DNA of 64,000 bases, taken from the IMG/VR virus record IMGVR_UViG_3300049215_000481, positions 78,857 through 142,856 of that record. One strand, given 5' to 3'. Below are positions 8,640 to 57,157 of the stretch, piece by piece; the first letter of the stretch is position 1, and each line of letters starts with the position of its first letter. Below the pieces are notes generated by a model. It was not told where the DNA came from, did not search any database, and was given only the letters and a program-made list of their open reading frames with translations. The translations under genes and the position numbers were made by a program. The DNA is from a virus.

Positions 8640-8644
8640 CGTCT

Positions 8645-20109: not shown

Positions 20110-20128
20110 AGCCGCAATCTTTCGGCTC
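20109..20128 (+). promoter_or_regulatory. motif B (GCCGCAATCTT) putative late promoter, here inside a GAGCCG/CGGCTC inverted repeat
   Basis: full or partial copies upstream of structural and HNH genes: 24666, 29487, 34194, 35491, 40245, 42718, 44261, 47587, 49358, 50941, 51944, 53542, 57215, 60591, 60647, 62163, 62958, 63836 (plus); 3486, 29453 (minus). Confidence 0.75.
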
Positions 20129-20139
20129 AGGACCCCTGA

Positions 20140-21111
20140 ATGTCGGCTTTGACTCTCATCATCAAGGCGCTGTCGTTTGACGACGACGCGGTGAACAGCA
20201 ACCCCGCTCAGAAGGGGATCGATCGCGGCCGGACCCTGTCGGGGCTCACGGTCGAGAACGACGAAACCCTGAAGGTCATGGTCGACCCGGGCGCCAGCGT
20301 CACCGTCTTCGACGGATCGCGCACCCTCGGCCACGACAACACGACCGACCTGCAGCTCACGCTGAGCCCGCTCGACCCGAACCGCTACCGAGTCACCTGC
20401 ACGAGTGGCCCTTCGCCAGCATTCCGCACGAACCGCAACCTCGCCACGAGTGGGAAGAACGTCCAGTGGCAGGTCAACGCCAACCAGACGGCCACGCTCA
20501 CCATCACGGCCTACTCCCCGCCTTGGTCGGTCGGTGACACCCTGTTCGTACCCGGTGCCAGCACCGGCGACTCCCCGTCAGCGTTCAACGCGCTGAACGA
20601 GGGCTACTGGACGATCCTGGCCGCGAGCGGGAACCAGGCGACGCTCGCGCGCTTCCCCGGCGAGGTCTTCTCAGGCTTCACCGAGACGGTCACGTCACCG
20701 GACAACAACGCCCTGCAGGCCTTCTCGGCCGCGGGCGTCCAGGTCGGCGACACCATCGACATCAGCGCGGGCTTCTCCGTGACGGCGCAGCACTCCTACG
20801 ACGTCGTGGCTGTGAACCCCAACTGGGTCGAGTTCATCAGCACCGCGCCGCTCGGCGAGGAGGTCGCGCAGCCCGGCCAGGCAGGCTTCGTCATCTACGA
20901 CGCCGCCAAGCGCTTTCTCTACATCGAGACCGACCAGGAGGTCGTGGTCCAGGTGAACGGTGACACCGGCAACTACAACCGCGTGGAGCCGGTTCTGCCC
21001 GGCGACAAGAAGTTCGTCGGCCCCTATATGAAGTGGGGCCACGCCTGGAAGCTGGTGCTCGTGAGCCGCTCCACGGCGCGCGCCAACGTCACGGTCTGTG
21101 CGGCTGAATAA
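20140..21111 (+). CDS. putative virion structural protein (beta-rich)
   Basis: between terL and portal, motif B upstream, Thr/Val/Gly-rich. Confidence 0.55.
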   Translation: MSALTLIIKALSFDDDAVNSNPAQKGIDRGRTLSGLTVENDETLKVMVDPGASVTVFDGSRTLGHDNTTDLQLTLSPLDPNRYRVTCTSGPSPAFRTNRNLATSGKNVQWQVNANQTATLTITAYSPPWSVGDTLFVPGASTGDSPSAFNALNEGYWTILAASGNQATLARFPGEVFSGFTETVTSPDNNALQAFSAAGVQVGDTIDISAGFSVTAQHSYDVVAVNPNWVEFISTAPLGEEVAQPGQAGFVIYDAAKRFLYIETDQEVVVQVNGDTGNYNRVEPVLPGDKKFVGPYMKWGHAWKLVLVSRSTARANVTVCAAE

Positions 21112-31064: not shown

Positions 31065-32468
31065 ATGAATCTCATCGAGCAAATCGGCGGCCTGGTCAAG
31101 GCACTCGAAGCCGGCAACTACGACGCGGCCCCCAGCCGCCTGCAGCAGGGCGCGGCCCTGCAGGTCGAGGACCTGTCCGACGTCATGCACAACGTGACGT
31201 TCGACCAGGACAAGATCAAGCTGCAGAAGATGCTGAAGGTCGAGAGCTGCAAGAGCCAGCTCGCGCAGTTCAACCGTCAGCTCAGCTACGGCATCATGGG
31301 CGGCGCCGCCGCCATGGAAGGCGGCATCGGTCAGGAGGAGACCTCGGATTACGTCCGTGTGACGGTTCCGATGGCGTACTACTCCGAGCTGCGCCGGGTC
31401 ACGCTCCAGGCCAACCTGGTCGAGACCGTGGACGGCGTGAAGGCGGAGGAGCGCGCGGCTTCGGACGCGGCGATCCACCTGGCGGCGAACATCGAGTTCG
31501 ACTGCTTCCGCGGCATGGCCGACTTCAGCAACGCGGGCGTGTTCGACGGCAACCCGCTGACGATCGCCGACCTCCCGAACATGCACGGTCTCGACCTGCA
31601 GGTTCGCCAGAGCGACAACCAGCGCAGCTCGCGCGACCTCATGTTCTCCGAGTTCGGCTCGGACGAGACGGTCGTGCTCTCGCAGGGCGGCGTCCTGACG
31701 CAGGAGACGGTCGAGGACGCGAGCGTCCGTTCGGCCCTCAACTGGGGTGAGGCGGAGAAGCTCATCATCGACCCGCGCTCGCTCAGCGCGTACAACAAGC
31801 TCGCGTTCGGCATCTCGCGCAACGTTCTCGCGGGCCAGCCGCTGGACGCGACGGGCGCCGACCTGCGCAAGCAGTGGGTGAGCGGCGGCACGGTCTCGAT
31901 CGAGGCGTCGCACTTCCTCCGCGGCAAGTACAAGCCCGCTCCGGCTCGCGCCAACGGCCCCCTGGCCCCGGCGTCGATCTCGCCGGCTTCGACCACGGAC
32001 GCGACGGCCCCCACGGCCTTCACCGCCGGCCAGGTGTACATCTACACCGCGACGAGCTGCAACGAGCTGGGCGAGAGCCTCCAGTGCGCGTCGCAGTCGG
32101 TGACGATCGGGACCACGGCCGACAAGGTCGTCGTGACGATCAACCACCCGGCGTCGGGCACGGTCCGCTTCTTCAACGTCTACCGCACGGTGGCGGGCGG
32201 CGCGGCCGGCACGCAGAAGTTCATCGGCCGCGTGGTCATCACGCCGGGCGCGAACTCGACGACGTTCACGGACCTCGGCAACAAGCTGCCCGGCTTCGTG
32301 ACGGGCTTCCTGATCGAGGGCGACACGATGATGCTCAAGGAGCTGGCGTCGTACTCGCGCGTGAAGCTGGCGGTCACCGACCTCAGCATGCCCGAGGCGC
32401 ACTTCCGCTTCTGCACCCTCGCGGTGACGGAGCCCCGCAAGAACGTCCTCATCGACAACCTGAAGTAG
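31065..32468 (+). CDS. major capsid protein (resembles SPO1/Twort-like MCPs)
   Basis: LVKALEAG...GAALQVEDL N-terminus, EETSDYVR, DAAIHLAANIEFDCFRG; AGGAG SD; followed by a terminator. Confidence 0.88.
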   Translation: MNLIEQIGGLVKALEAGNYDAAPSRLQQGAALQVEDLSDVMHNVTFDQDKIKLQKMLKVESCKSQLAQFNRQLSYGIMGGAAAMEGGIGQEETSDYVRVTVPMAYYSELRRVTLQANLVETVDGVKAEERAASDAAIHLAANIEFDCFRGMADFSNAGVFDGNPLTIADLPNMHGLDLQVRQSDNQRSSRDLMFSEFGSDETVVLSQGGVLTQETVEDASVRSALNWGEAEKLIIDPRSLSAYNKLAFGISRNVLAGQPLDATGADLRKQWVSGGTVSIEASHFLRGKYKPAPARANGPLAPASISPASTTDATAPTAFTAGQVYIYTATSCNELGESLQCASQSVTIGTTADKVVVTINHPASGTVRFFNVYRTVAGGAAGTQKFIGRVVITPGANSTTFTDLGNKLPGFVTGFLIEGDTMMLKELASYSRVKLAVTDLSMPEAHFRFCTLAVTEPRKNVLIDNLK

Positions 32469-35510: not shown

Positions 35511-36041
35511 ATGCGGCAGGTGTCCTTCCACTTCATGCACAAGAAGCGTCCGACCTCCCGCCACGCGCAGGAGGACAAGGACGGGTGGGTGCGGATGTAC
35601 CAGCAGGGGAAGAGCTATCGCGAGATCGCGGTAGCGTTCGACGTACCGTATCCGAGCGTCTTCTACTATGTCAGGAAGACCCTCGGCATCACTGACGGAC
35701 GGAAGCCCGGACGCAAGAAAAAGTACACGGATCTTTCTCCTCGCCAGGTCCAGCGCAACTGCCAGCTCAGGAACTCGTACGGCATCTCTCTCGACGAGTA
35801 CGCAGTATTGAAGGAGTCGCAGGGTGGCGTCTGCGCGATTTGCGAACTGCCGCCGAAGAACGGCAAGACGTCGACAAGTGCACTGCACGTAGATCACGAC
35901 CACGAGACTGGTCGAGTGCGTGGGCTGCTCTGTCAGAAGTGCAACCCAGCTCTCGGCCAGTTCAACGACGACCCAGACCTGCTGGAGCGTGCGGCCTCGT
36001 ACCTGCGCCTTCACCGTGAAGCTCAGAAGGTGGCTGCGTAG
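35511..36041 (+). CDS. HNH endonuclease (EndoVII-like) with N-terminal HTH
   Basis: [14 protein letters not shown] helix-turn-helix; CAIC...[20 protein letters not shown]. Confidence 0.88.
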
Positions 36042-38881
36042 TGGCTGAAGTCGCTCTGATCACCGCATACAACGGCCACGGCCAGCTCCTCTTCGGGAAG
36101 CGCAAGGACAACGGCCGCTGGACCCTCCCGGGCGGTCACTTCGAGGAGGGCGAGACTCCCGAGCAGGCGGCGCGCCGCGAGATGTTCGAGGAGACGGGTC
36201 TGCACGCGCAGACTCTCGTCCCGTTCGCCACGTTCACGAACCCGCAGGGCATCACACTGCACTGCTTCTCCGCGTTCGTCACCGGCGAGCCCCACAGCAA
36301 CTTCGACCCCGACGACGAGGTCGAGAAGTGGGAGTTCGTTGACATCGAGAACGGCATCCCGTCGAAGATCTGGGAGCACCTCCACGGTCCGCAGGACGAT
36401 CAGAACCTCGTCCGCCGCGTGTTCGAGGCTGAGGGCCTGTCGAAGGCCGAGGAGCCGCTGGCGAAGGCCAAGTGGCGCGTCAAGGACAGCGACGTCTACA
36501 CCACGTACGAGTTCCCCGACGAGGAGTCGGCGAAGGAGTACCGGAAGAAGGCGGGCAGCAAGTACGAAGACGACTGGAAGGGCATCGGCGTCTGTGAGGT
36601 GAAGGGGAAGCGCGTGGTCGCCCGCGCGTGGAGCGACTCTAACCTCGACGACTTCACGTCGCTCGCGGTGAAGATGGGAGGCAAGATCGTCGACGCCGAC
36701 GACATGGACGACCTCGTGTCGCCGGAGCGCTTCCGCGAGCTGGGGAAGGCCGAGGACGAGGTCGGCAGGCTCCTGGAGCATCCCTCGCCGCACGAGCGCA
36801 CGCTCGCGCTGAAGCTCAACACCGTCACGCCGCGCCACCTGCAGACGGCCTCGCTCGACCCGCACCCAGACGTGCACTCGCTCGCCATCGCGAACCCGCA
36901 GTTCGGGCACGCGGAGGCACACCACCTGATGTCGGCTTCTGCCGGCAGCGACGGGAAGTTCCCGCTCGTGCAGCAGCACGAGTTCCTGCGCCAGCACGAC
37001 CGCGTTCGGCCGTACCACCTCGTCTCGTTCGTGAACAACGCTCGCGCTCACGCCGCGGGCGACGACCTCGACCGCGCGCTGACCATCGCTGTCGGCCACC
37101 CCAGCCTGCCGCCTGTCATGGTGCGGTCTCTGTACCTCGACCCGCGCACCTCAGCGGCGCACCGCCTCGCCCTAGTGGGTCATATGAAGGCGCCTGTCGA
37201 CGTCCTGGAGCACGCCCTCCACACGGGCCTCATCGTCCCGTCGGCCGAGGCGACCTCACTCGCACAGGCTGCGGTCGCACACCCCTCCCTCCCCCACAGC
37301 TCCGTCGAGCACGTCGTCAAGATGGCCGGTGACCGAGGCGAGCCGCACGTCGTCGCCATCGCGACCCACGCTCTCAAGACGAACGCCACGTCGCCGGAGA
37401 TGAAGGAGCACCTCTTCACGCAGACGCTCCTGAAGCCGCGCTCCGCAGCCTCGCGCGCGCTCCTGAACGCGTTCCTGGAGGGGCCCTCGGCGAAGCCCGA
37501 GGACCGCCAGCGCGCTCTCGGGCAGTTGCTGAACAAGTCCGAGCCGCTCGCGAAGGCCGTCGCCCCGCAGCACTTCAGCTCCATCGTGAAGGCGCTCGAC
37601 CCCGAAGCTCACAAGCTCGTTGACCACAAGCCAGACCTGTCCGCGCACCCGCAGTCGCACGGCGCCGAGGTCCAGGCGTATCACCACAACGTCGTGAACA
37701 GCGCCCAGCGCGTTGGCGCGCACTCCAGCGGCAGCGCTGGCCTCGGCGGTGGCATCACGCGCAAGAAGGTGTTCCGCTACCAGGTCCCGGGTCAAACAGA
37801 GCCCGGCAAGGCCATGGTGAAGCCCTATCACGAGCGTGTCATCCAGCGCTGCAGCAAGTGGATGAAGTATCCGATCCAGGGCTGGGCCGAAATGACGACG
37901 CAGGCCCTCTTCCACGCAGGCGGCATCGGGCACCTCCACCAGAAGGTCCACGTCACAGAGCACAACATGGGTCCGGGGCACGAGCACGAGCCCGCCCTGG
38001 TCGTGCACCTCGCCCCGAATCACCTCGCGGTCACGGACGGCGGTCGGACCTACTACAAGCCCGAGCAACACGACCTGGACGTGCGGAAGATCGCGCTGAT
38101 GGACTTCCTTACGAACAACAACGACCGCCACGGTGGGAACTTGATGTTCAACGCCGACACCGGCGCACCGCTCGCGATCGACCACTCGCGGAACTTCCAG
38201 TACATCCGTCCGGCGCAGGACCGTTTGTCGCTGGACCGCACGCCCGACGGCGAGGACACGTTCAAGAACTACGCAACCGGTGCGCTCCACGGCATCGCCA
38301 GTCCGGTCACGGAGGATGTCCGCCGCAACTACGACTACGACAAGCCGGGTGACCGCCAGCGCGCCCTGTACGACGCGCAGCTCGACGGCATGCGGAAGTA
38401 CGCCCCGGCCTTCGAGTGGTGGGACGAGGCGGGTCCGAAGATCCGCCAGGAGTTCCACAAGCGCCTCGACCAGATCAAGGACCCGGAGGTGCGCGACCAC
38501 CTGAAGCGCAACTTCGATGCGCGCGCCGACTGGCTCGACGAGCGCGGGCATTTCGGCTTGGAGAACTACGGCGGCGACTGGTACCACGACGCCGTTCCGA
38601 TGTACAAACCGGACCAGCTCTCCGAGGCGGAGAAGGACGACCCCGAGGCCGTGGCCCGCTTCAACGAGCGTATCCGCGCGAAGCAGGACGCAGAGAAGAA
38701 GGCGCGCGCGGACAAGCGCAACGCGAAGAAGGCGTATCAGAACTGGCTCAACGAGAAGCCGCAGTACCCGCACCACATCATGAGCCTGCCTCGCGAGCAG
38801 ATCGACCAACACCCGGACTGGAAGAAGTACGTCGAAGCGTACGATCCGTGGCTCGCGCGACGGCCGGCGGAGGCAGCGTAA
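36041..38881 (+). CDS. multidomain protein: NUDIX hydrolase + HEAT-like repeats + HipA/PI3-PI4K-like kinase
   Basis: NUDIX box [24 protein letters not shown]; helical repeats; [13 protein letters not shown]...AIDHSRNF. Confidence 0.8.
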
Positions 38882-40225
38882 ATGCGCGTCGTAGTGACGG
38901 ACCACATGACCGACAAGTCCAAGCTCTACGAGGGCACGGACGACGTGATTGAGCAGCGCCTGCTGTTCGACTACCCGTGGCTGCGTCCGGAGGACGACTC
39001 AGATCGCGACCTGCACGCCACCCTGGAACATCTGGACGCCACAGGCGCCTATCAGGTCTTCGTCGAGGAGGAGCCGCTCACGAAGAGCAATCTTGAGCGC
39101 AAGGACCTCGCGAACCACCCCGTCATCGCGTCGATGCTCGGCTTCATCCCCACCTCCACGCCCGAGTTCCAGGCAGCACGCTGGATGTCCGGCGGGCGCG
39201 ACATCCCGATCGAAGCCGTTCGCCGCGCGCTCTACGACGAGGACGGGAACATTGAGCACGCTGCCCTGAAGGCCTACGGGTTCGAGATCAACGACACCAA
39301 CATCAAGGCTCTCCACGCGGTCCGCGGCATGGGCGACTTCTCCAAGTCGGAGGAGTTGGCCGCGACCGCTGGTTCTGTCATCGCGGCGCACGCCGAAGGT
39401 GAGGACGTCGCGCAGGCGCTCCGCCGCGCGTACAAGGACCAGTTCGTGCTCCCCGTCGCACTCGCCGGAAAGCACTCGAAGGGGTCGCTCGTCGCTCGCG
39501 ACGAGGCCACGCACTCGACCTGGCTCCTGAAGCCGGGCTCGGGGAAGGCCGGCGCTGCCGCCGGCAGCTCCCAAGACCCGTCCACGCAGAGCGCCCGCGA
39601 GGCTGCCTGGTACCACATCGCGAAGGAGTGGGGCCTTTGGAGCAGCTTCCCCCGCGCGGAGCTGATCCTCATCGACGGCCAGCAGTACGCCGCGCTCCAG
39701 CTCCTGCCGTGGAGCTACAAGACCGCCGAGAAGCGTCGCGTGTCGGAGCCGGGCATCGTCCGCAAGGTCCTGGCACCGTACCTGACCGACGGCGTGCTCC
39801 ACCAGTGGGCGATCATGGACTTCGTCCTCGGCAACCCCGACTCGCACGGCCAGAACGTCATGGTCGATGACGAGGGGGACGTGAAGCTCATCGACCACGG
39901 CTCGGCGTTCGCCGGTCCTGCCTTCGACCCCGCACACGACAACGACTCGTTCGTCCCCTACTACCTGCGCGCGTGGGCCCCGCGGCAGAACTTCAACGCC
40001 TTCACGACCGACGAGAAGCTCCGCTACATGCCGCGCGTGTCTGCGTCCACCGCCGCACGCATCAGCCAGTGGGTCCTGGGGCTCAACGCGGGCGCCGTCC
40101 AGGCGCTCTGCCACCGCTACGGCATCAACCCGGCCCCGACGCTCGACCGCCTCGCCCGGGTGAAGGCTGCGGTCGCCTCGGCACCGGCTGACGAGGCGAT
40201 CAACCGGCTCTGGGTCACGACGTAG
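38882..40225 (+). CDS. HipA/PI3-PI4K-like atypical kinase
   Basis: GKHSKG loop, WLLKP, REAA, DFVLGNPDSHGQN, LIDHGSAF. Confidence 0.8.
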   Translation: MRVVVTDHMTDKSKLYEGTDDVIEQRLLFDYPWLRPEDDSDRDLHATLEHLDATGAYQVFVEEEPLTKSNLERKDLANHPVIASMLGFIPTSTPEFQAARWMSGGRDIPIEAVRRALYDEDGNIEHAALKAYGFEINDTNIKALHAVRGMGDFSKSEELAATAGSVIAAHAEGEDVAQALRRAYKDQFVLPVALAGKHSKGSLVARDEATHSTWLLKPGSGKAGAAAGSSQDPSTQSAREAAWYHIAKEWGLWSSFPRAELILIDGQQYAALQLLPWSYKTAEKRRVSEPGIVRKVLAPYLTDGVLHQWAIMDFVLGNPDSHGQNVMVDDEGDVKLIDHGSAFAGPAFDPAHDNDSFVPYYLRAWAPRQNFNAFTTDEKLRYMPRVSASTAARISQWVLGLNAGAVQALCHRYGINPAPTLDRLARVKAAVASAPADEAINRLWVTT

Positions 40226-43042: not shown

Positions 43043-43450
43043 GTGGCCGAGACGAAGGAACAGGCAGCCGTCCGGATGCGAGAGTGGCGCCGGACTCATC
43101 CCCGCACCAATGCCATGCGGGTGGCAGCGCGTGAGAACGCGCGTCGATGGCGGAAGAACAACCCTGCCAAGGTGAAGATCCAGAACCGTCGCGACAACCT
43201 CAAGAAGAACTACGACCTCAGTACCGAGCAGTACGAGGCGATGATCGTCGCGCACGAAGGCAAGTGCCACGTCTGCAAGCAGCCTCCGACTGGACGCTGG
43301 AAGCGGCTCCACGTAGATCACGACCATAGTACCGGTGTGATTCGCGGCCTGCTGTGCAGCGGCTGCAATCTTGCCCTCGGCCACGTGAGAGACAACCCTC
43401 AGACTCTCCGCGACCTGGCCACGTACCTGGAGGCGAGCCGTGAACACTAA
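43043..43450 (+). CDS. HNH endonuclease (EndoVII-like)
   Basis: CHVC...LHVDHDHSTGVIRGLLCSGCN. Confidence 0.88.
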   Translation: MAETKEQAAVRMREWRRTHPRTNAMRVAARENARRWRKNNPAKVKIQNRRDNLKKNYDLSTEQYEAMIVAHEGKCHVCKQPPTGRWKRLHVDHDHSTGVIRGLLCSGCNLALGHVRDNPQTLRDLATYLEASREH

Positions 43451-44261
43451 GCCTGAAGGGAATGTAGCCCTCCAGTTCAGCTACATCACGACCAGTTTTG
43501 ACCCCGTGATGTTCGACGTCGCGATCCGCGCGAACGGCGTCAAGCTCGTGCACTACCGCGCGATGAAGTGCCCCGTCGGCATGGTCGACCGGTACGACAC
43601 GCGGCGCATCCACGAGGACCACGCCGGCTGCAGCAACGGCTTCCTGTACACGAAGGCGGGCACCATCACGTGCCTGTTCACCGGCAACGGCAACCGGCAG
43701 AACTCGTCCGACCTCGGCCTCCTCGACGACAGCACCGTCTCGGTCACCGCCCCGCGCTTCTACGACGACACCGAAGAGGACACGCAGGTCGCTCAGTACG
43801 ACCGCATGTACCTCGACGAGGAAGCGATCACTGTGCCGCACTGGCAGCTCGTCGAGACGCACGCCACCGGCCGCGACAAGCTCAGCTTCCCCGTCGTCGA
43901 GGTGATGGACATCGTCGACACGCACGGCAAGCGCTACAGCGTGAACGACTACAAGATCGAGAACGGGCAGATCGTCTGGGTGGGGGACCGCCCCGGCTTC
44001 GACGCCATCGCCAACAAGGGCGAGATCTACTCGATCCGCTACACGTACCGCCCCTACTGGTACGTCCAGCGCATCAACCATCAGGTCCGTGTCGCGCAGG
44101 TGGAGACGCCGCTCGCCCGCAAGCTCATCCGGATGCCCCAGGCCTTCACGCTCCAGCGCGAGTACGTCTTCGAGAAGGAAGAGAAGGACGACCAGGCGCC
44201 GGACCCGAACAGTCCGCGGCAGCACAAGGGTCCGCGCGACGGCTCGTACGGTCCCCGGTAG
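43440..44261 (+). CDS. neck / head-closure protein
   Basis: GVKLVHYRAMKCPVG...GFLY...YSIRYTYRPYWYV; neck-module context. Confidence 0.6.
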   Translation: MNTKPEGNVALQFSYITTSFDPVMFDVAIRANGVKLVHYRAMKCPVGMVDRYDTRRIHEDHAGCSNGFLYTKAGTITCLFTGNGNRQNSSDLGLLDDSTVSVTAPRFYDDTEEDTQVAQYDRMYLDEEAITVPHWQLVETHATGRDKLSFPVVEVMDIVDTHGKRYSVNDYKIENGQIVWVGDRPGFDAIANKGEIYSIRYTYRPYWYVQRINHQVRVAQVETPLARKLIRMPQAFTLQREYVFEKEEKDDQAPDPNSPRQHKGPRDGSYGPR

Positions 44262-45521: not shown

Positions 45522-46748
45522 CTACTCGTAGATCCGGACGGCGACGCCGACCGGGAAGCACGGCTTCTTGTCTTCGGTCCACTCGAAGAACTTGACCGTG
45601 AGCAGCTTGCCGATCAGCTTGTCGCCGAGTCGCAGGAACTCCGCGCGGTCCTCGAAGTTCCCGGGGGCGCAGCAGTCGAACTCCTTACCTTCGTCCGTCT
45701 TGCACGTGAAGACTTCGTCCGTCTTGCACGTGAAGACGGCCAAGCCCTCGAACTTCCCGCGGCCCTCGCCTACGGCGACGATGGGAAACTCGCGCTCGAT
45801 GAAGGACTTCACCTTCATCAGGCCCGACGACCGCTTCCCTGCCTCGTACTCTCCGTACGGGTCGCGCAGAATGCCGCCCTCGTAGCCCTCGCCGACCCAC
45901 TTCTTCTCGATCGCCCGAGCTTCGCTCTCGCTTGCGACCGAGATCGTCTCGACCCGATGGATGTGGTCGTGCGTCAGGCCGATGATGTTCGTGAAGATCT
46001 CGTCCAGCTCTCCGCGTCTGACGCGCCATGGACGCTTCAGGTTGGCGAAGTCACTGTTGACGGGCAGGTCGTAGACGAAGTGCCCGAGCTGCTCGAAGTC
46101 CGGCTTGGTCTTCTCCTTCCGGACGTAGCCGGAGATCTTCTGCAGCGACCAGCCGTGGCGATAGATCTCGCCGTCGAGCGTGAATCTGCCGGGGACGTCG
46201 CGGAACGCGGCCTCGTACGCTGCCTGGATGTGAGGCACGCCGAGGATGCGCTTTCGCTTCCGGCTCCAGAGGCTGACCTTGCCGTCGACCACCTCGACGA
46301 TGCAGCGCACGCCGTTGAACTTGCGCTGGTAGTCGTAGGGCCAGGTGCGCTTCTTCTCGGGGACGTCCTCCAGCGATTTGGCGAGCATCGGGAAGATGCC
46401 GCCCTCGGCATCATCCTCGCCGGCTTCAGCGCGCTCGCGCTCGACGACGTAGCCGTTGCGCTCCTTCTTCTTGCGCCACAGAGCCTCAGCTTCGAGGCAG
46501 GCCTGCTGGTAGGCGTCCGTTTCGTTCTTCTTGCCCAGGTTCTTTCCTTGGCGGACTACATCCTCGCCCGTCTGAAGCTTCCCGTCGACCTGGCCATGTT
46601 CGGTGTGGATGATCCCAGCCAGTTGGGGGTCGCCCGGTTCGTGAAGATCCTTTTGGAAGCACTTCTCGACCCAGATGCGCCACTGCTGGAGCGCCCCAGA
46701 GCTGGACCGCTTGTACAGCGTCGGAAACATCATCATCTCGGGCATCAC
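45522..46748 (-). CDS. lig: ATP-dependent DNA ligase
   Basis: KFNG motif I, LDGEIY, FVYDL, EGGILR, KRS...KVK, OB domain LTVKFFE. Confidence 0.92.
   Translation of the reverse strand: MMPEMMMFPTLYKRSSSGALQQWRIWVEKCFQKDLHEPGDPQLAGIIHTEHGQVDGKLQTGEDVVRQGKNLGKKNETDAYQQACLEAEALWRKKKERNGYVVERERAEAGEDDAEGGIFPMLAKSLEDVPEKKRTWPYDYQRKFNGVRCIVEVVDGKVSLWSRKRKRILGVPHIQAAYEAAFRDVPGRFTLDGEIYRHGWSLQKISGYVRKEKTKPDFEQLGHFVYDLPVNSDFANLKRPWRVRRGELDEIFTNIIGLTHDHIHRVETISVASESEARAIEKKWVGEGYEGGILRDPYGEYEAGKRSSGLMKVKSFIEREFPIVAVGEGRGKFEGLAVFTCKTDEVFTCKTDEGKEFDCCAPGNFEDRAEFLRLGDKLIGKLLTVKFFEWTEDKKPCFPVGVAVRIYE
45689..45736. repeat. perfect 24-nt tandem duplication inside the ligase (VFTCKTDE x2)
   Basis: CTTCGTCCGTCTTGCACGTGAAGA repeated twice. 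Confidence 0.95.
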
Positions 46749-47563
46749 GCGGCCCTCCGCAGCACGGCGCCGTACACGTCGTGCATCATCTCGCGCGCGT
46801 CGGTGTACAGCTCGTCCAGCGAGCCGTCGTTCTTGATGATGCCGTGGAAGAAGTGGCGCGGGATGCCGCCCAGCTCGGCTTCGCTGCGGTGGTTCTTCAT
46901 CCCGCCCGCTTCGACCGCCTTCGCGTTGGCGTTCGGCCGAACGATCAGGACGGGGAAGCCGCCCACCATGGCCACGCTGATCACCTCGTTGCGGAAGCGC
47001 CCGTCGGTGATGATGGCGAAGTCGTAGCCCGGGAACTCGTCGTTCTGGACGAGGCCCTGGTCACGGTCGTAGGTCCAGCCGCCGCTCAGGAGCTTCTGCG
47101 CGGTCCGGATCGCGTGCTGCGACCACATCTCCTTGTTGACGTGGCGACCGAACTCGGTCCCGAGCGTCTGGAGGACGTAGCGAGGTGAGAGCGCCTCGCC
47201 CTTGTCGAGCTTCTCGCGCTGGACGAACTGTTGGTACCAGTAGATCGCGCGCGCCATGACGTCCGGCGTGCAGGCGCCCGGCAGGATCTCGTTCATGTAG
47301 CTGGTGAAGAGGTTGCTCAGGAGGACTTGAGACGCCTGGCGCTCGGGCAGCAGCGTGCCGACGTCCACGGCGTTGCGGAAGTCGCTCGGCCCCCAGAGCT
47401 GCTGGTCGCTGAAGCCGAACAGGCGCTTCACCAGGCTCTTCATCGGGTCCGCCTGGGCAACGCAGACCCCGTTGTAGTTCTCGGCGATGTAGGAGGCGAC
47501 GGTGTCCTTCCCAGACCCGGCTTGCCCGGCCAGGAGAATCAGGGGCGTGGCAACTTGTGACAT
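46745..47563 (-). CDS. deoxynucleoside monophosphate kinase
   Basis: AGQAGSGKDT P-loop, ADPMK, PRYVLQTLGTEFGR, ITDGRFRNE, HRSE. Confidence 0.9.
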   Translation of the reverse strand: MSQVATPLILLAGQAGSGKDTVASYIAENYNGVCVAQADPMKSLVKRLFGFSDQQLWGPSDFRNAVDVGTLLPERQASQVLLSNLFTSYMNEILPGACTPDVMARAIYWYQQFVQREKLDKGEALSPRYVLQTLGTEFGRHVNKEMWSQHAIRTAQKLLSGGWTYDRDQGLVQNDEFPGYDFAIITDGRFRNEVISVAMVGGFPVLIVRPNANAKAVEAGGMKNHRSEAELGGIPRHFFHGIIKNDGSLDELYTDAREMMHDVYGAVLRRAA

Positions 47564-47605
47564 GTAGGCCTAATAGCGAATGTCCTGCCGCAATCTTGTG
47601 GGGGC

Positions 47606-48148
47606 ATGGAGTCCGCCTCACGTCTCTCGCGCTATCGGAAGAGGAAGCGCATTGCACTGCAGTCCCTGAAGACGGGGCCGTGTGTCGACTGCGGACGGAC
47701 CCTTCCGCCTGAATGTATGGATTTCGACCACCTATCCGGCGCCGAGAAGGACACAGACGTGTCCAGATTGGTCAAGTACGCTTCGATGTCGAAGGTCGCT
47801 GACGAAATCGCCAAGTGTGAATTGGTATGCGTCCTGTGCCACCGCAACAGGACGTATCACCGCGCCAAGGCAGTGACCCCCGACAGTCGCTTCGGTCGGT
47901 ACTACGTCAAAAAGCGGACGTTCGTGTGGGCTGTCAAGAACGTGCCCTGCGCTCACTGTGGGATGCGCTACCAACCTTGGCAGATGGACCTAGACCACCG
48001 CGATCCGGCGTCAAAGGTAGCTTGTCGCTCGACAAGGGCGGCAGGTGTCTTGAGCATGAGCCTGGCGCGTCTGCGTGCGGAGCTGCCCAAGCTCGAAGTT
48101 CTGTGCGCAGCTTGTCATCGGACCAAGACCTTCAGAGTGGTGAACTAA
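47606..48148 (+). CDS. HNH endonuclease with two tandem HNH-like units
   Basis: CVDC..DFDH..CELVCVLCH and CAHC..DLDH..VLCAACH. Confidence 0.82.
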   Translation: MESASRLSRYRKRKRIALQSLKTGPCVDCGRTLPPECMDFDHLSGAEKDTDVSRLVKYASMSKVADEIAKCELVCVLCHRNRTYHRAKAVTPDSRFGRYYVKKRTFVWAVKNVPCAHCGMRYQPWQMDLDHRDPASKVACRSTRAAGVLSMSLARLRAELPKLEVLCAACHRTKTFRVVN

Positions 48149-48151
48149 GCA

Positions 48152-49339
48152 ATGGATTGTTTCATTTCGTGGGACGGCGACCACATCGGTCGCCAGGTTG
48201 GTCTCGCCGTACTCGGCGACGACGTAGGCGAGGTGCGCCGCGTCGACCAGGCCATCAACTCTGGCAACGAGCTGTGGCGCTCGTTCTGCCTCCAGGTCGG
48301 CGGCAGCGTCGTCGAGATCGGTGGCGACGAGGGGCGCATCCAGATCGGAGCCGACCACCTCGCAGAGGTTCCCGACATCGCCCGCCGGTACGCGGAGCTG
48401 GTTGGTGCCACCGTCTCCGTCGGCGTCGGCATGAAAATGAGCGAGAGCGCCAAGGCCCTGCTCGTGGCGAAGCTCCGCGGCGGCAACCAGACGGTCCTCT
48501 GGGACCCGGACATGCAGGCCGAGATCGACAAGGCCACCTCCCACCCCAAGACGGAGCAGGAGAAGATCGCCGACGAGTACCTCGGCAAGGCTGACCAGCC
48601 CGGCATCGCCGGCACGACCGACAAGGACCAGCACGCCGGCTTCACCGGCGCCCAGCGGGGCGCGAAGGGGACGCAGGGCGACCACGAAGAGGGCGCCCAG
48701 GCTGAGAAGTCGATCGAGGACGCGCAAGACGCAGCCCCGCCGCCGCCCGAGGGTACGCACGCCGCCGAGGACTTCGAGAAGCAGCTCCACGACATGGCGG
48801 CTGCACAGGGCAAGAAGGACGACGCCGACAACCAGCAGCAGGCTTCGCAGGCCGACCAGGTCAAGCGCCGCGTCGCTGAGGTCCTGCTCGCGGTGCGCCA
48901 GCAGATGCCCGTCCTGCAGCAGCTCCAGACGTCGGCGCCCGACACGTTCGCCGCCATCATGGGGCTCGTCCAAGGCGTCATCGAGCTGGGCCGCTCGGTC
49001 TCGCCGGCCGCCCCCGCACAGCCTCCGGCCGACCGCGAGCCAAGCCATGTTCAGGCCGCCCTCTCGACCGTCCAGAAGGAGGAGATGGACGCCAGCCCGG
49101 CCACGAAGGTGGGCGAGCTGGACAAGGCCAACCTCGGCGCGAACGTCGCCGCTTCGGGCCACCACCTCCACCTCCCGGTCGGCTCCGTGCTCGACGGCAA
49201 GGTGAAGGTCGCGCACGCCGACGGCACGCAGGGCTGGAAAGAGGTCCGGGCCGGCATGGTCCAAGGCAAGGAGCCGGGTGCGCCCCTACTTGGGGCCGTG
49301 TCCCATCCGGTCAGCTCTAGACAGCCCGGCGCGAAGTAG
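48152..49339 (+). CDS. mCpol (minimal CRISPR polymerase / Cas10-palm-like cyclic nucleotide synthase) domain fused to a low-complexity virion-type tail
   Basis: N-terminal ~117 aa: ISWDGDHIGR...GGSVVEIGGDEG...TVSVGVG...ESAKALLVAKLRGGN; LGKA and LDKA motifs downstream. Confidence 0.75.
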   Translation: MDCFISWDGDHIGRQVGLAVLGDDVGEVRRVDQAINSGNELWRSFCLQVGGSVVEIGGDEGRIQIGADHLAEVPDIARRYAELVGATVSVGVGMKMSESAKALLVAKLRGGNQTVLWDPDMQAEIDKATSHPKTEQEKIADEYLGKADQPGIAGTTDKDQHAGFTGAQRGAKGTQGDHEEGAQAEKSIEDAQDAAPPPPEGTHAAEDFEKQLHDMAAAQGKKDDADNQQQASQADQVKRRVAEVLLAVRQQMPVLQQLQTSAPDTFAAIMGLVQGVIELGRSVSPAAPAQPPADREPSHVQAALSTVQKEEMDASPATKVGELDKANLGANVAASGHHLHLPVGSVLDGKVKVAHADGTQGWKEVRAGMVQGKEPGAPLLGAVSHPVSSRQPGAK

Positions 49340-49370
49340 TTGCTCTTCGTAGAGCAACAATCTTTAGAGC

Positions 49371-49817
49371 ATGCCCGCTCCTGTTCCCGTCATCGACGGG
49401 AAGCGCCGATGCTCAAGGTGTACGTTCCCGAAACCGGTCGAGGACTTCAACAGCTACATCCGCAGGGGTGTGACGGTGTATCTGTGGTGCAAACCGTGCC
49501 AACGCTCGTATGTTCGAGGCCGTCCAAAGACCGAGGCCGCACTCGCGCTTCTCGATCAGAAGAAGCGACTTGTCGACGAGCTGAAGCGCAAGCCGTGCGC
49601 AGACTGTGAACGGACCTTTCCTTCCGTGGCGATGGACTTCGATCACATCCGTGGCACCAAGAAGGCGAACATCGCCCAGATGATGAAGCAGTCGTACAGC
49701 CTCGAAGCTATTCTTGACGAAATCGCGAAGTGCGAACTCGTCTGCGCGAACTGCCATCGTGTACGCACCGCCCTCCGGGGGCGTGTTTCGAAGGGTGGTG
49801 CGCCATCCTTTTCGTAA
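49371..49817 (+). CDS. HNH endonuclease
   Basis: CSRC, CKPC, CADC..MDFDH..CELVCANCH. Confidence 0.85.
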   Translation: MPAPVPVIDGKRRCSRCTFPKPVEDFNSYIRRGVTVYLWCKPCQRSYVRGRPKTEAALALLDQKKRLVDELKRKPCADCERTFPSVAMDFDHIRGTKKANIAQMMKQSYSLEAILDEIAKCELVCANCHRVRTALRGRVSKGGAPSFS

Positions 49818-49846
49818 ACATCGACGTCGGTGACCTCGCCGACCTG

Positions 49847-50623
49847 ATGAATGTCGACGAGGCAATCAAGGGCGCAACAGAATGTGCCGCTCGCGACCTC
49901 GCCGAGATGACGAAGCGCAAGGCCGAGGAGCTGGCAGCGACCAAGCTCCACACGCGCCGCGAGATGTTCGTCAAGGGTCTGAAGGTCCAGGCTGTCAACG
50001 AGGACACGTGGATGGTGTCGCTCGACGCCAAGGTCCGGTGGATCGACGACGGCATGACCTCGCACAACATGCTGGACCAGCTCCTGGCGAGCCCGAAGGC
50101 GAAGCGTGCAGCAGACGGCTCGAAGTACGTCGTCATCCCGTTCGACCACAGCCCCGGCAAGGGCAGCACCGGCGCGACGCCGGCTCAGCAGGACCTCATC
50201 ACGACCATCAAGTCGGAGATGAAGAAGCGCGGCATCCCGTTCGGCAAGATCGAGACGGACGCCGCGGGTCAGGCGAAGCTAGGACGACTCCACTCCTTCG
50301 ACATCGAGACGGCCCCGATCAAAAGCTCGCACGGGCCCGGCCAAGGCAAGGGGCCGCTCGGAGCGGTCAAGCAGGGGCCGACCGGCATCCCGCTACTGCA
50401 GGGCGTGACCGTCTACCAGAGCAAGGACAGCAAGGGGAAGGTCAAGCGGCACGTCATGACGTTCCGAGTGGCGTCCTCGAAGCACGCTGGCCAGGGCCGC
50501 TGGGAGCACCCGGGCAACCAGGCCGTCAACATCATGGAAGACGCCGCTCAGTGGGCGCGCGAGACGTGGGAGAAGGAAGTGGCTCCCGCTCTCGTCGACA
50601 AGATGATGATGGAGATCGGCTAG
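49847..50623 (+). CDS. putative neck / tail-completion protein
   Basis: neck-module position; YVVIPF, VMTFRVASS; the native start appears displaced by the HNH insertion. Confidence 0.6.
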   Translation: MNVDEAIKGATECAARDLAEMTKRKAEELAATKLHTRREMFVKGLKVQAVNEDTWMVSLDAKVRWIDDGMTSHNMLDQLLASPKAKRAADGSKYVVIPFDHSPGKGSTGATPAQQDLITTIKSEMKKRGIPFGKIETDAAGQAKLGRLHSFDIETAPIKSSHGPGQGKGPLGAVKQGPTGIPLLQGVTVYQSKDSKGKVKRHVMTFRVASSKHAGQGRWEHPGNQAVNIMEDAAQWARETWEKEVAPALVDKMMMEIG

Positions 50624-51960: not shown

Positions 51961-53445
51961 ATGTCCGGCACGCCCGAAGGTGCAGACACGCACCTGTACA
52001 AGGCCCCTCCTCCCGAGGTCGCTGACCACCCTCTGTTCCACGGTGGCCAGACCGTCGGGATGATGACGGCCGAGGCGCCGCGCTTCTCGTCTGAACAGGG
52101 CGGCAACGAAGCCCTCGAATCGCACTTCAAGCAGATGGGCCTCAAGTACGAGCCCACGCACGGGTCGTACGGCGGGCCCGAGCACTCGTACCTCGTCTAC
52201 AACCCGACGCGCGAGCAGATGTACAAGCTCGGCCAGAAGTTCGGGCAAGAGGCCGTCATCTACTCGCAGGACGGCCGCCACGAGCTGCTGTACACGCGCG
52301 GCGACAACGCCGGCAAGTACCACCCGAGCCTGCCCCTGCTCCGCTACAGCAAGGAGCAGCCGGACGACTACTACACGCACATCCCGCAGCGCGGGTACGT
52401 GACGCTCCACTTCGACTTCGACCACCCGCAGGACTCGCCGGTCAAGAACAACATCCCGCTGGCGCAGCAGACGCCGACCGGCGACAAGCCGCTCAACAAG
52501 CGTGAGATCCGCGAGCACCTGCTCATCGCGCTCCGCAAGAGCATGGGCGGCTCGAAGCACCCGCACTCGTACCCGTGGCACGAGGGACACACGGGTCACC
52601 ACCAGCACTCGGTGGGTGGCGGTGTCCTCCTCGACAGCAGCAAGTACCAGGGGCTGTTCCGGTTGGCCAAGAAGGACGAGTCCGCTCTCACTCCCACGGT
52701 CCCGCACAACAACCCCCAGGCCGCCGGTGCCGGCGTCGCCACGTACGCGAAGTACGCAGCGCCCCACGGGACCATCGACAAGGCGAAGCCCTCGAACCTG
52801 AAGTTCTACCCGATGGCGGGCACCAAACCTGTCGTCGACAAGCTCGTCAAGGACAACGGCTTCCAGGTCTACTACGCGGGCGGCAAGCACGGGAAGGCCG
52901 ACCTCGCCGGCAAGAACTACAACACCGGCCACCTGATGATCTGGGACCCGAGCGCGGGTTCCGGCGGTGACTTCAGCGAGGCCGACTACACCGACAACTG
53001 GCGCAAGACGCACGAGCTGGCGCACGCACTCACGTACCCGCAGCTCAACCAGATCTACGGAGAGGGCCGCCGCATGGGCGGACTCGGCAAGCAGCGCACC
53101 GCCCGAGAGGCGAAGCGCGCCGTGCACTGGGAGTGGCTCGCAGCCCACAAGCAGCGCGAACTCGCCGCGCAGGCCGGCGTGCACATCTCGGACGAGGACT
53201 TCCACCGCAAGCTGAACACCGTCATGCACGACGCGGTTCACCGCGCGGTGACCGGCAAGTTCACGGAGCCCTCGGACGAGGGGTTCGTCCCGCACCCGCA
53301 CAAGGTGCCACTGGAGACCGCACTCGGACTCGTGGATGAGGCCGCACGTGGGATGGGCCTGCACTCAGACCACGACGTCATCCGGAAGTTCTCGCGCGAC
53401 CTCCTCTTCGCTCTGAAGGACGTCCTCCAGAAGAACGCTCGCTGA
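51961..53445 (+). CDS. multidomain protein: DUF3293-like domain + HExxH zinc metallopeptidase-like domain
   Basis: MTAEAP..GNEAL...GSYGGPEHSYLV..LGQKFGQEAVIY; THELAH with downstream HWEW; LYKA, LRKS, LAKK linkers. Confidence 0.65.
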   Translation: MSGTPEGADTHLYKAPPPEVADHPLFHGGQTVGMMTAEAPRFSSEQGGNEALESHFKQMGLKYEPTHGSYGGPEHSYLVYNPTREQMYKLGQKFGQEAVIYSQDGRHELLYTRGDNAGKYHPSLPLLRYSKEQPDDYYTHIPQRGYVTLHFDFDHPQDSPVKNNIPLAQQTPTGDKPLNKREIREHLLIALRKSMGGSKHPHSYPWHEGHTGHHQHSVGGGVLLDSSKYQGLFRLAKKDESALTPTVPHNNPQAAGAGVATYAKYAAPHGTIDKAKPSNLKFYPMAGTKPVVDKLVKDNGFQVYYAGGKHGKADLAGKNYNTGHLMIWDPSAGSGGDFSEADYTDNWRKTHELAHALTYPQLNQIYGEGRRMGGLGKQRTAREAKRAVHWEWLAAHKQRELAAQAGVHISDEDFHRKLNTVMHDAVHRAVTGKFTEPSDEGFVPHPHKVPLETALGLVDEAARGMGLHSDHDVIRKFSRDLLFALKDVLQKNAR

Positions 53446-54655: not shown

Positions 54656-57157
54656 ATGGCTCAGTCGTACGTTACGGACGCAGGCGCGCTCATCATCCCG
54701 AGCAGCAGCGTCACCTACTCGGTCGCTCAGTCCAACAGCGGGCTCGGCACCACGGGCGTGCTCTTCCTCGTCGGTGAGGCGGACATGGGCCCGGACTTCA
54801 CGCAGGAGTCCGACATCGGCCTCAACGCGTTCGGCCCCGACCAGATGGCGGACGTCCTCGCGAAGTACGGCAGTGGTCCGCTCGTGGACGCGTTCCGCGG
54901 CGCCAACCCGGCGGCGAACGACCCGCAGATCCTCGGCACGTTCTTCCGCGCGATCCTGGTGAAGACGAACCCCTCGGGCAAGGCCTCGGCCACGCTCGCG
55001 AAGTTCGATGCTTCGCCGTACACGACGCTGCAGGACCAGACGTTCGGCAAGCTCGGCAACCTCATCAACTACCAGGTCACGGCGAAGCAGTCCGAGACCG
55101 TGCCGACGACCGGCAAGTTCGCCTGCCTCCTCCCGATCGCCTCGACGAACGTGTCGGTGCGCGTGAACGGCGGCTCGGCGACGGCCATCACGGTCGGTGC
55201 GCTGCAGACGCCGACGGCGACCGCGGCGGCGTTCGACGCCGTGCCCGGCATCGACGTGAGCGGCGGCGCGTCCGTCGCCCTGATCGGTGGCGTCACCGGC
55301 ACGCTCGCGCTGACGGTGGTCTCGGGCAACCGCGTCCAGATCGACCGCTCGGTCGCGTTCGACGCCCTCCCCTCGATCGGCGACACGCTGTTCATCCCGG
55401 CGGCCTCGGTGCTCGCCTCGGTGCACGCGAACAACGCCGGCTCGTACGTCGTCACGGGCGTCTCGACGAGCCAGATCCTGGCGACCAAGGTGCTCGACGT
55501 GACGGGCGCGCCCAACGCGCTGACGCCTCCCACGAACCAGGCCGCCATCAACATCGCCTCGACCTCGGTCGACCTCGACGCCTACACGGCCGTCGAGATC
55601 CACGCGGTCACGTCCACGAACCCGATCGACGGCTTCGGCAAGAGCATCGAGATCGCGGAGCTGACGTCCGGGACGGGCGTGCTCACCAGCATGGTGGCCG
55701 TCCTCTCCAACGGCGTCCCCGTGACGCCGACGTGGTTCTCGAAGAACAACGCTCCCAAGCTGATCACCTCGGCGACGGAGTACATCGCGCAGCTCAACGA
55801 CGCGCGCCAGGTCGACAACATCAGCGAGAGCATCTCGGCCGGCGGCGCCATCGCGCTGCAGCTCGGCTACCTGGGCACGACGGCGCAGGCTGTGGTGACG
55901 GCCACGACCATGACCATCACGGTCACGGGCGGCACCGGCTCGTCGCCGGCAGCGATCAAGCTGGCGGACTTCCCGACGATCTCGGACCTCGCGACGTACA
56001 TCGCCAGCCTGCCGGGCTTCACGGCCTCGCCGGGCACCGCGGTCCTCGGCTCGCAGCCGTCGACCTCGCTCGACCAGGGCACGTTCAACATCTGCTCGAC
56101 GTTCGGCGGCGCTCCCGGTCGCATCAAGCAGGACGCGTACAAGTTCAACAAGGCCGTCGCCGAGAACTCGGCGCTCGTGCAGCTCAGCGCTTGTGCTCCG
56201 GCGGGCCTCCCGGCCCCGACGACCTCGATCGCGTACCTCGCGGGCGGCACGCGCGGCGCGACCACGGACGCGATCTACACGGCGGCGATGAACGCGCTGG
56301 CGCTCGCGCGCGGCAACTTCCTCGTCCCCCTGTTCTCGCGCGACGCGACGGGTGACATCGCCGACGGTCTGACCGACACGTCGTCGACATACACCATCGC
56401 GGGCATCCACTCGGCCTCGCGGGCCCACGTGCTCAAGATGTCGACGCTGAAGGCGGGCCGCAACCGCCAGGCGTTCCTGTCGATCCGCGACACGTTCGAG
56501 GTCTGCAAGGCCACCGCGGCGAACCTCGCCTCGTTCCGCTGCTCCTGCGCGTTCCAGGACGCGAAGGACCTCGGCGCGAACGGCGTGCAGCAGTTCCAGC
56601 CGTGGATGGCGGCCGTCAAGGCGGCAGGCATCCAGGCCGCGGGCTTCTACCGCCCGATGTTCCGCAAGGGCGTCGCCATCTCCGGCGTCGTGCAGGCGGC
56701 CGGCGACTTCAACGACCAGGACGACTCGCAGATGGAGGACGCGCTCCTCGCGGGTCTGCTCCCGGTCCGTCGCGACGAGACCGGCGGCTTCTACTTCGTC
56801 AGCGACCAGACGACGTACGGCAAGGACAACAACTTCGTCTACAACTCGATCCAGGCCGTCTACGTCGCCGACACGATCGCCCTCACGCTCAAGCAGCAGA
56901 TGGAGCGCGCGTTCGTCGGCCAATCGGTCGCCGACATCAGCGCTTCGCTCGCACTGAGCACGCTGGAGTCGATCATGGACGACCTCCGTCGGCTCAAGCT
57001 GATCTCTCCGTCGGACGACGCGCCCAGCGGCTTCCGCAACGCGAAGATCCAGATCAAGGGCACCGCGATGGTCGTGAGCATCGAGGTGAAGCTGGCCGGC
57101 GCGATCTACTTCGTGCCCATCTCGTTCCAGATCACGCAGGTGCAGCAGTCGGCGTAA
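54656..57157 (+). CDS. tail sheath protein
   Basis: 833 aa; GEADMGP, YGSGPL, LAGG, C-terminal DQTTY...SIQ...AIYFVPISF sheath patterns; directly before the tube gene. Confidence 0.88.
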   Translation: MAQSYVTDAGALIIPSSSVTYSVAQSNSGLGTTGVLFLVGEADMGPDFTQESDIGLNAFGPDQMADVLAKYGSGPLVDAFRGANPAANDPQILGTFFRAILVKTNPSGKASATLAKFDASPYTTLQDQTFGKLGNLINYQVTAKQSETVPTTGKFACLLPIASTNVSVRVNGGSATAITVGALQTPTATAAAFDAVPGIDVSGGASVALIGGVTGTLALTVVSGNRVQIDRSVAFDALPSIGDTLFIPAASVLASVHANNAGSYVVTGVSTSQILATKVLDVTGAPNALTPPTNQAAINIASTSVDLDAYTAVEIHAVTSTNPIDGFGKSIEIAELTSGTGVLTSMVAVLSNGVPVTPTWFSKNNAPKLITSATEYIAQLNDARQVDNISESISAGGAIALQLGYLGTTAQAVVTATTMTITVTGGTGSSPAAIKLADFPTISDLATYIASLPGFTASPGTAVLGSQPSTSLDQGTFNICSTFGGAPGRIKQDAYKFNKAVAENSALVQLSACAPAGLPAPTTSIAYLAGGTRGATTDAIYTAAMNALALARGNFLVPLFSRDATGDIADGLTDTSSTYTIAGIHSASRAHVLKMSTLKAGRNRQAFLSIRDTFEVCKATAANLASFRCSCAFQDAKDLGANGVQQFQPWMAAVKAAGIQAAGFYRPMFRKGVAISGVVQAAGDFNDQDDSQMEDALLAGLLPVRRDETGGFYFVSDQTTYGKDNNFVYNSIQAVYVADTIALTLKQQMERAFVGQSVADISASLALSTLESIMDDLRRLKLISPSDDAPSGFRNAKIQIKGTAMVVSIEVKLAGAIYFVPISFQITQVQQSA

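Follow-up and report, generated by a model that had tools for sequence, protein, structure and literature searches.

An mCpol domain heads a conserved protein of the head-to-tail structural module in large Mx1-like phages

Why should a phage carry, among the genes for its head and tail, a domain whose characterised examples, from papers of 2025-2026, all serve as the synthase of a bacterial Panoptes guard system? The question is raised, here on the virus side, by a 395-aa protein encoded in a 64,000-nucleotide stretch of DNA (the window), which corresponds to bases 78857-142856 of the 169,280-bp IMG/VR virus record IMGVR_UViG_3300049215_000481, rated 100% complete by CheckV. An initial annotation described the protein as a "solo" mCpol of about 117 residues followed by a low-complexity tail. 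The mCpol assignment is borne out by our analysis; instead of standing alone, however, mCpol is the N-terminal domain of a conserved multi-domain protein of the structural module, found at 20 related loci. The protein represents a new architecture within the mCpol family, one specific to phages and incorporated into the head-to-tail module. Its gene and parts, in window positions, are the following.

48152..49339, plus strand: gene for the mCpol-headed structural-module protein, 395 aa (open reading frame, family and synteny)
48152..48511, plus strand: mCpol palm domain, residues 1-120, with D8/D10 and D59/E60 (Pfam, OptS profile match, Foldseek and homodimer test)
48575..48592, plus strand: site 1, E142-Y-L144-G-K146-A147, candidate protease site at the end of helix 135-147, before the disordered linker
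48761..49000, plus strand: helical domain, residues 204-283, three helices (predicted local distance difference test, pLDDT, 83-95)
49115..49129, plus strand: site 2, E322-L323-D-K325-A326, candidate protease site inside a disordered linker (pLDDT <50)
49160..49336, plus strand: C-terminal beta-rich domain, residues 337-395, H-L-x-L-P-V-G-S ... W-K ... S-H-P-V-S-S-R-x-P

Residues 4-115 match the Pfam mCpol family PF18182 at 40.1 bits (cut-off 26.4; E 5.6e-10; profile positions 1-112 of 114), and the same model scores 43.4 bits in a six-frame search of the genome. All the motifs quoted by the initial annotation (DGDxxGR type, GGDE turn, SxGVG, AKxxGxN type) are present in the gene, as W-D8-G-D10-H-I-G-R, G57-G-D59-E60-G, S89-V-G-V-G93 and A100-K-A-L-L-V-A-K-L-R-G-G-N. 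A profile built from 23 family members matches the solved OptS/mCpol chains 9nwn and 9mnr/9pd0 at E ~1e-11. In the profile alignment D8 and D59 (plus D10 and E60) align with the catalytic Asp6 and Asp57 of KpOptS, which form the OptS active site (PMC12657218). PHROGs and PADLOC assign the 395-aa protein to no family.

The structural comparison with OptS that had been proposed gives the same answer. An AlphaFold model derived from 110 sequences reaches pLDDT 94-98 over residues 1-130 and adopts a palm fold, the best PDB matches of which, in a Foldseek search, are 9pd0, 9mnr and 9nwn (template-modelling score 0.86-0.88; root-mean-square deviation 1.3-1.6 A over ~115 residues). The next matches are GGDEF domains, class III cyclases and Cas10. 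When residues 1-147 were modelled as a homodimer, they scored 0.71, against 0.00 for the best control, and passed a mark that is reached by 21 of 30 true (solved) homodimers and by none of 23 single chains; residues 54-58, which neighbour the GGDE turn, are part of the predicted interface. Judged by sequence and predicted structure together, residues 1-120 are a genuine mCpol domain, and this copy, with all four acidic residues intact, is apparently catalytically competent.

How far does the family extend, and is the active site kept? A word-indexed search recovered 117 full-length relatives, 28-62% identical, whose contigs reach 200 kb, and an exhaustive search with residues 1-125 returned at least 816 sequence clusters at E<=1e-3. 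The best 150 of these 816 clusters are all proteins of 135-1297 aa, and in all but one of these 150 the mCpol domain lies at, or within ~40 residues of, the N-terminus. Members are known solely from large uncultured phages plus Myxococcus phage Mx1, and a pattern scan of 185,579 cellular genomes found none. Among the 217 members with a complete N-terminus (the Mx1 protein being counted apart from them), 199 (92%) keep D8, D10, D/E59 and D/E60. That the acidic residues are retained in such deeply diverged sequences, down to 28% identity, speaks for selection on catalysis.

Mx1 (169,621 bp) is the sole relative among 50,697 deposited phage records in a tblastn search with the 395-aa protein; a megablast search of 20 kb against the same records gave no match. 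The source virus, with a GC content of ~65% over the window, is a large Mx1-like myophage. Its Mx1 counterpart is the only cultured homologue.

8001-9404 of Mx1 locus L001: Mx1 homologue, WNM70340.1

Like the phage gene studied here, the Mx1 gene lies five genes upstream of the tail sheath, and its product has the same helical and C-terminal domains and the L-x-K of site 1; it differs in being only 27% identical and in having no flanking HNH genes. Supplementary Table 3 of PMC12657218 lists WNM70340.1 as "mCpol+?", without comment. In the literature that we searched, this single row for Mx1 is the only trace of the family, and phage-encoded mCpol is not discussed in the two Nature Panoptes papers, the type II paper or the 2026 review.

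What, then, do the remaining 275 residues contain? The alignments give a constant order of parts: mCpol, K-I-x-D-E-Y-L-x-K-A, a disordered linker, the three-helix domain, a variable region, E-L-D-K-A and the C-terminal beta-rich domain. The description of a low-complexity tail does not hold for this half of the protein, as the helical domain (204-283) and the beta-rich domain (over 340-395) are both conserved, and disorder is confined to residues 150-180 and ~290-336. Across the family, the helical domain conserves H213, A216, D223, L245, P253 and P263, and in the C-terminal domain P342 and W362 are invariant and G344, G368, S388 and P392 nearly so. The variable region between these two domains is where relatives carry one or two GNAT domains (18 of 45 long members), DUF5661, ParB_N or DUF3293. 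In the copy at 48152-49339, mCpol is the only effector-type domain; additional ones occur in relatives. We also considered "head swapping", namely the combination of the C-terminal part, as an anchor, with some other N-terminal enzyme, and rejected it, as every protein matched by a C-terminal query still carries a head derived from mCpol, sometimes a degenerate one.

The C-terminal half was also modelled separately (mean pLDDT 73). Compared with 48,161 PDB chains by VIA-align, this model gave generic helical matches alone (Z<=7); BFVD returned one uncharacterised phage protein, and ESM Atlas nothing usable.

The genomic position of the gene is as constant as its architecture. Mx1 and 19 IMG/VR loci share the order g130 (virion structural protein), g131, g132, mCpol gene, g136, g137, sheath, tube; in these 20 loci g131 and g132 are two small genes, and g137 encodes ~330 aa with a tail-terminator-like end. 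In compact relatives the major capsid protein (MCP) gene is just four genes upstream of the mCpol gene. In relatives, the mCpol stop codon is immediately followed by the start of g136, which reads M-[FL]-x-[IV]-N-[IV]-D. A phmmer search of g130, g136 and g137 against PDB sequences gave no match. The mCpol protein is a conserved member of the head-to-tail (neck) structural module. Its immediate neighbours in the window are these.

47606..48148, plus strand: upstream HNH homing-endonuclease gene (PHROG HNH, E 1e-37; GC content at third codon positions, GC3, 0.72)
49371..49817, plus strand: second HNH gene (PHROG HNH, E 5.5e-28), within the first codons of g136
49805..50623, plus strand: g136, the downstream partner, ~270-280 aa (phrog_16819, E 4.9e-15), which always follows the mCpol gene (20 loci)

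The initial annotation was right that both adjacent genes are of HNH type. The upstream one ends 3 nt before the mCpol start codon, and the cassette of the second one splits the start of g136, with M-L-F-V at 49340-49351 on one side and I-L-F-V-N-I-D from 49805 onward on the other. Neither HNH gene occurs in any of the 20 related loci, and the GC3 of both is lower (0.71-0.72, against 0.88-0.96 in neighbouring genes), which identifies them as incidental homing-endonuclease insertions peculiar to this genome. Within 49340-49851, candidate starts for g136 in this phage are GTG 49730 and ATG 49847, or else the gene may be expressed by splicing. A group I intron around the HNH genes was considered and dropped, as Rfam gave no match at E<=1 in 47400-50100.

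The sequence GCCGCAATCTT is a late-type motif, which occurs in the window in 5 exact copies and in 32 copies with at most 2 mismatches (16.2 expected). It lies mostly on the plus strand, a few bases before the starts of structural genes (e.g. at 20111, 35491, 40245, 42718 and 47587), and the exact copy at 47587-47597 stands just upstream of the unit formed by the first HNH gene and the mCpol gene.

The two candidate protease sites provide another link between this protein and the head. At site 1, L144 is kept in 106 of 110 members and K146 in 108 of 110 (the catalytic D8 is kept in 91 of 104); at site 2, K325 is kept in 100 of 110 members and position 323 is L, V or M in 92 of 110. These L-x-K sites lie at the edge of, or inside, otherwise variable segments with pLDDT <50. 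The same motif opens the MCP.

31092..31103, plus strand: MCP N-terminal L10-V-K12-A13, with the L-x-K motif that the mCpol protein also has

L-x-K-[A/T] is found at the MCP N-terminus in 9 of 9 relatives examined, one of them at 29% identity. The broader pattern [EDG]-L-x-K-[AGSD] occurs 25 times in 182 predicted proteins (11.4 +/- 3.2 in shuffles), and 11 of these 25 copies fall in five head-module proteins: four in a 1321-aa polyprotein, three in a 283-aa protein, two in a NUDIX protein, and one each in the MCP and the mCpol protein. The motif being common to the mCpol protein and to the MCP N-terminus suggests processing by the prohead protease and a location inside the prohead.

Head cargo with such sites is well known: T4 internal proteins and Alt carry prohead-protease L/I-x-E sites, and phiKZ inner-body proteins carry S/A/G-x-E sites. 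The resemblance lies in short conserved motifs placed at domain boundaries and shared with the MCP N-terminus. The present case differs in that the motif is L-x-K and that the gene is in the neck rather than the head module. The conservation and distribution of the motif suggest that the L-x-K sites are maturation-protease sites, in which case the protein may be cleaved, packaged and injected. As a separate observation, the first 30-50 residues of the MCP, just after L-x-K, weakly match (E 7e-13 to 5e-4) segments inside open reading frames of 339-1473 aa in related phages (loci L006, L007, L009 and L012), in some cases at a distance of a few kb from the MCP gene. This segment may be a shared capsid-targeting or scaffold-contact segment.

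PHROG and Pfam scans of the window place the mCpol gene inside one long structural block, with the following landmarks.

18172-20109: large terminase (PHROG/Pfam scan)
21111-23297: portal (PHROG/Pfam scan)
24683-28648, plus strand: head-module polyprotein, 1321 aa; GGDEF domain at the C-terminus, four [ED]-L-x-K-[AS] sites
31065-32468: MCP (phrog_752, E 3e-42)
43440-44261: "virion structural protein", g130 (PHROG/Pfam scan)
54656-57157: tail sheath (PHROG/Pfam scan)

The scans also list a weak MuF-like open reading frame after the portal. The polyprotein GGDEF domain (residues 1138-1264; Pfam E 1.2e-14; 59.2 bits) is a second palm cyclase carried by the structural block besides mCpol. The [ED]-L-x-K-[AS] sites of the polyprotein are at residues 217, 457, 902 and 1083, the last of which precedes the GGDEF domain. 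In the Mx1 annotation the counterpart of the polyprotein is a "putative prohead protease" plus a separate "nucleotide cyclase" gene.

Other enzymes are encoded nearby. Positions 36041-40225 encode a 946-aa protein, which has a NUDIX domain at its N-terminus (E 1.6e-20) and a segment resembling PI3/PI4 kinases, and then a kinase-like protein of 447 aa. On the minus strand, an ATP-dependent DNA ligase and a deoxynucleoside monophosphate kinase are encoded at 45522-47563, inside the structural block, and in many relatives, not all, this ligase/kinase pair is directly upstream of the mCpol gene. Finally, positions 51961-53445, after the neck genes and before the sheath, encode a 494-aa protein that matches DUF3293 at its N-terminus (E 5.6e-6) and, weakly, a SAM-lyase family; one long mCpol-family member likewise carries DUF3293 as an insert.

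How might these parts work together? The explanation that we propose, and to which we give an even chance, is that the protein is late, probably protease-processed and virion-associated, and that its mCpol head, as a dimer, produces a cyclic nucleotide acting on host signalling. The mCpol gene would be co-expressed with the neck and tail genes; the head domain would dimerise and, like OptS or the Cas10 palm, condense nucleoside triphosphates (probably ATP) to a cyclic di- or oligonucleotide. The prohead protease would cut after K146 and K325, and the protein would be loaded into the head, as the opening of the MCP with the same motif implies. The enzyme would then be delivered with the DNA, or at least be present from the first minutes of the next infection, and its product would interfere either with host cyclic-nucleotide immunity (Panoptes, CBASS or type III CRISPR) or with host physiology. 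Counter-defence by nucleotide synthesis is plausible. In a narrower version, which we regard as unlikely, the injected, protease-released mCpol head would make the Panoptes off-signal (e.g. 2',3'-c-di-AMP or cA3), so that the phage could deplete the signals of CBASS or type III CRISPR while the guard stays silent.

Several observations weigh against this explanation. The profile checks disagree: the Pfam model accepts the domain, but NCBIfam NF033576 mCpol gives it 24.7 bits (E 2.8e-5), below its cut-off of 40, and by this score the protein is a divergent mCpol member. The homodimer score may owe something to OptS structures that the model had already learnt. For the C-terminal half, the comparisons described above gave no match to a known capsid-targeting, portal-binding or neck fold. 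The L-x-K enrichment is modest and the motif short, and a strict scan for [EDGQ]-hydrophobic-x-K-[AGSD] in the long members did not find a site at every inserted-domain boundary. The active site is not universal. In 18 of the 217 members (~8%), among them P0116, P0117 and P0229, at least one of the four acidic positions differs, and ~10 of these members are without D59. The Mx1 site is degenerate as well, with S-I-D for D-G-D and L-G-A-V-G for G-G-D-E-G, i.e. D8, D59 and E60 have been lost, and the Mx1 copy is probably inactive. The catalytically degenerate members and Mx1 nevertheless all retain the helical and C-terminal domains, as well as site 1 in all except P0229, which suggests that the conserved core function may not need catalysis. 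From these alignments the family would have a conserved, catalysis-independent role, to which the cyclase is a usually retained addition. Mx1 is a good model for localisation, not for activity. Mx1 has been reported to be insensitive to the Myxococcus xanthus CBASS-CRISPR island (PMC11506125); we rejected this insensitivity as support, as the Mx1 mCpol is without catalytic residues.

Could the phage instead carry a defence system of its own? A Panoptes-like defence or superinfection exclusion system with its effector elsewhere in the genome would agree with mCpol genes being otherwise known only from defence operons. The initial annotation had noted that no CARF, SAVED or two-transmembrane effector is adjacent, and the mCpol gene is indeed flanked by the HNH genes and the neck gene, with no two-transmembrane/sensor operon partner. 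No cognate effector was found at a distance either: in the whole 169-kb genome, the models for the S-2TMbeta/Cap15 receptor and SAVED and two models for CARF (PF18153, PF18145, PF09002, PF09651) had no match. The genome's only protein with two N-terminal transmembrane helices and a sizeable soluble domain (246 aa, genome positions 146400-147696) adjoins a 148-aa SLT transglycosylase, in a lysis-cassette-like setting, and matches a cupin-type PHROG; we rejected it as an effector on account of this setting and of its having no nucleotide-sensor domain. Other two-transmembrane candidates in the genome, lysis-cassette-like or without assignment, were rejected too. The family's absence from the cellular genomes scanned means that the gene is not prophage-borne, and, together with the lack of an effector in the genome, makes a phage-borne defence system very unlikely; we consider this possibility largely refuted. 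The counter-defence idea of the initial annotation amounts to a cytoplasmic, non-packaged cyclase with no structural role, which would resupply the Panoptes inhibitory nucleotide or flood the cell with decoys. Its premises, an intact mCpol site and a genome without an effector, stand, whereas the free-standing minimal cyclase does not. Type I (mCpol + S-2TMbeta) and type II (mCpol + dCARF-TM) Panoptes both occur in Myxococcota, in Archangium, Corallococcus and Nannocystis (Supplementary Table 3, PMC12657218), and the sole phage answer to Panoptes found in the literature that we searched is loss of the sponge. However, the gene has a fixed place in the neck module, translationally abutted to a neck gene, and the conserved non-enzymatic domains and L-x-K sites would be superfluous for a soluble cyclase. 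A late, unpackaged enzyme would presumably arrive after an early sponge had tripped Panoptes. The persistence of catalytically dead members (~8% of the family, as well as Mx1) is also difficult to accommodate. Finally, Tad2-like and 2_5_RNA_ligase2 (2H) models have no match in the phage (Acb1, Acb2, Acb4 and Tad1 were not searched for), which slightly weakens the scenario of replacing a signal removed by the phage's own sponge. We consider a purely cytoplasmic cyclase rather unlikely.

The same dead members speak for a structural or assembly protein (neck, head-completion or scaffold-like) that would use the mCpol fold for dimerisation or nucleotide binding, its cyclase being incidental or vestigial. 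Mx1, P0116, P0117, P0229 and others have lost acidic residues and kept the rest; the helical and C-terminal domains and the L-x-K sites are better conserved than the catalytic D8; the position among the head-to-tail joining genes is strictly conserved, and the predicted homodimer is a confident one. But the four acidic residues, the GGDE turn and the SxGxG loop, kept in 92% of members across deep divergence, are hard to explain without selection for catalysis, and the enzymatic inserts of relatives (GNAT, ParB_N) point to an effector-type protein, so that we hold a solely structural role to be fairly improbable. If the cyclase does act, its target need not be immunity: together with the polyprotein GGDEF it might rewire second-messenger physiology (c-di-GMP or c-di-AMP; motility, exopolysaccharide or development in myxobacteria). 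Such a host-takeover signal would fit a module that encodes two distinct palm cyclases as well as a NUDIX domain and two kinase-like proteins, and cyclic-nucleotide production by invading elements is a theme raised by Iyer et al. 2017 (PMC5512222). On the other hand, no receptor or target is identifiable in the sequence, which does not separate a physiological from an immune reading, and all characterised mCpol enzymes act in immunity; this possibility appears to us highly doubtful.

The virion-associated cyclase that we propose can be compared with two further groups of known proteins. The first is the OptS/mCpol of Panoptes (KpOptS 9MNR and 9PD0; 9NWN; PF18182), with which the phage domain shares the Cas10/GGDEF-type palm, the catalytic Asp pair and the predicted homodimer. 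It is, however, only 23-24% identical to OptS and heads a 395-aa protein instead of forming an OptS-type protein of ~120 aa; its gene belongs to the structural module of a lytic-type phage, without an OptE or CARF-TM partner, whereas Panoptes systems are located in cellular defence islands. The second is the polyvalent virion proteins described by Iyer et al. 2017, which combine GGDEF, GNAT, kinase, NUDIX-associated and ParB-like domains and are predicted to be delivered with the DNA and to act as it enters; its authors proposed that a delivered GGDEF/cyclase may interfere with host nucleotide signalling (PMC5512222). Similarly, the mCpol gene stands among late structural genes in 20 loci, and its relatives and its module string unrelated enzymatic domains (GGDEF, GNAT, ParB-like, NUDIX, kinase) on linkers. 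Unlike polyvalent proteins, the protein studied here is small, at 395 aa, has a single enzymatic domain, is not fused to MuF or to a portal, and possesses helical and C-terminal domains of its own. mCpol is not among the domains reported for polyvalent proteins in PMC5512222.

What would such a protein mean for these phages? If it is packaged and cut at the L-x-K sites, it would define, with the GGDEF, NUDIX and kinase proteins of the module, a new set of protease-released virion cargo enzymes. If the mCpol head is active, phages would make immune-type cyclic nucleotides, and counter-defence by synthesis would join degrading and sponging, providing a direct answer to the question of how phages escape Panoptes without giving up their sponges. 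Should the product prove to be the Panoptes off-signal, this would be the first anti-Panoptes counter-defence, and the first to act by synthesising an immune nucleotide instead of destroying or sequestering it.

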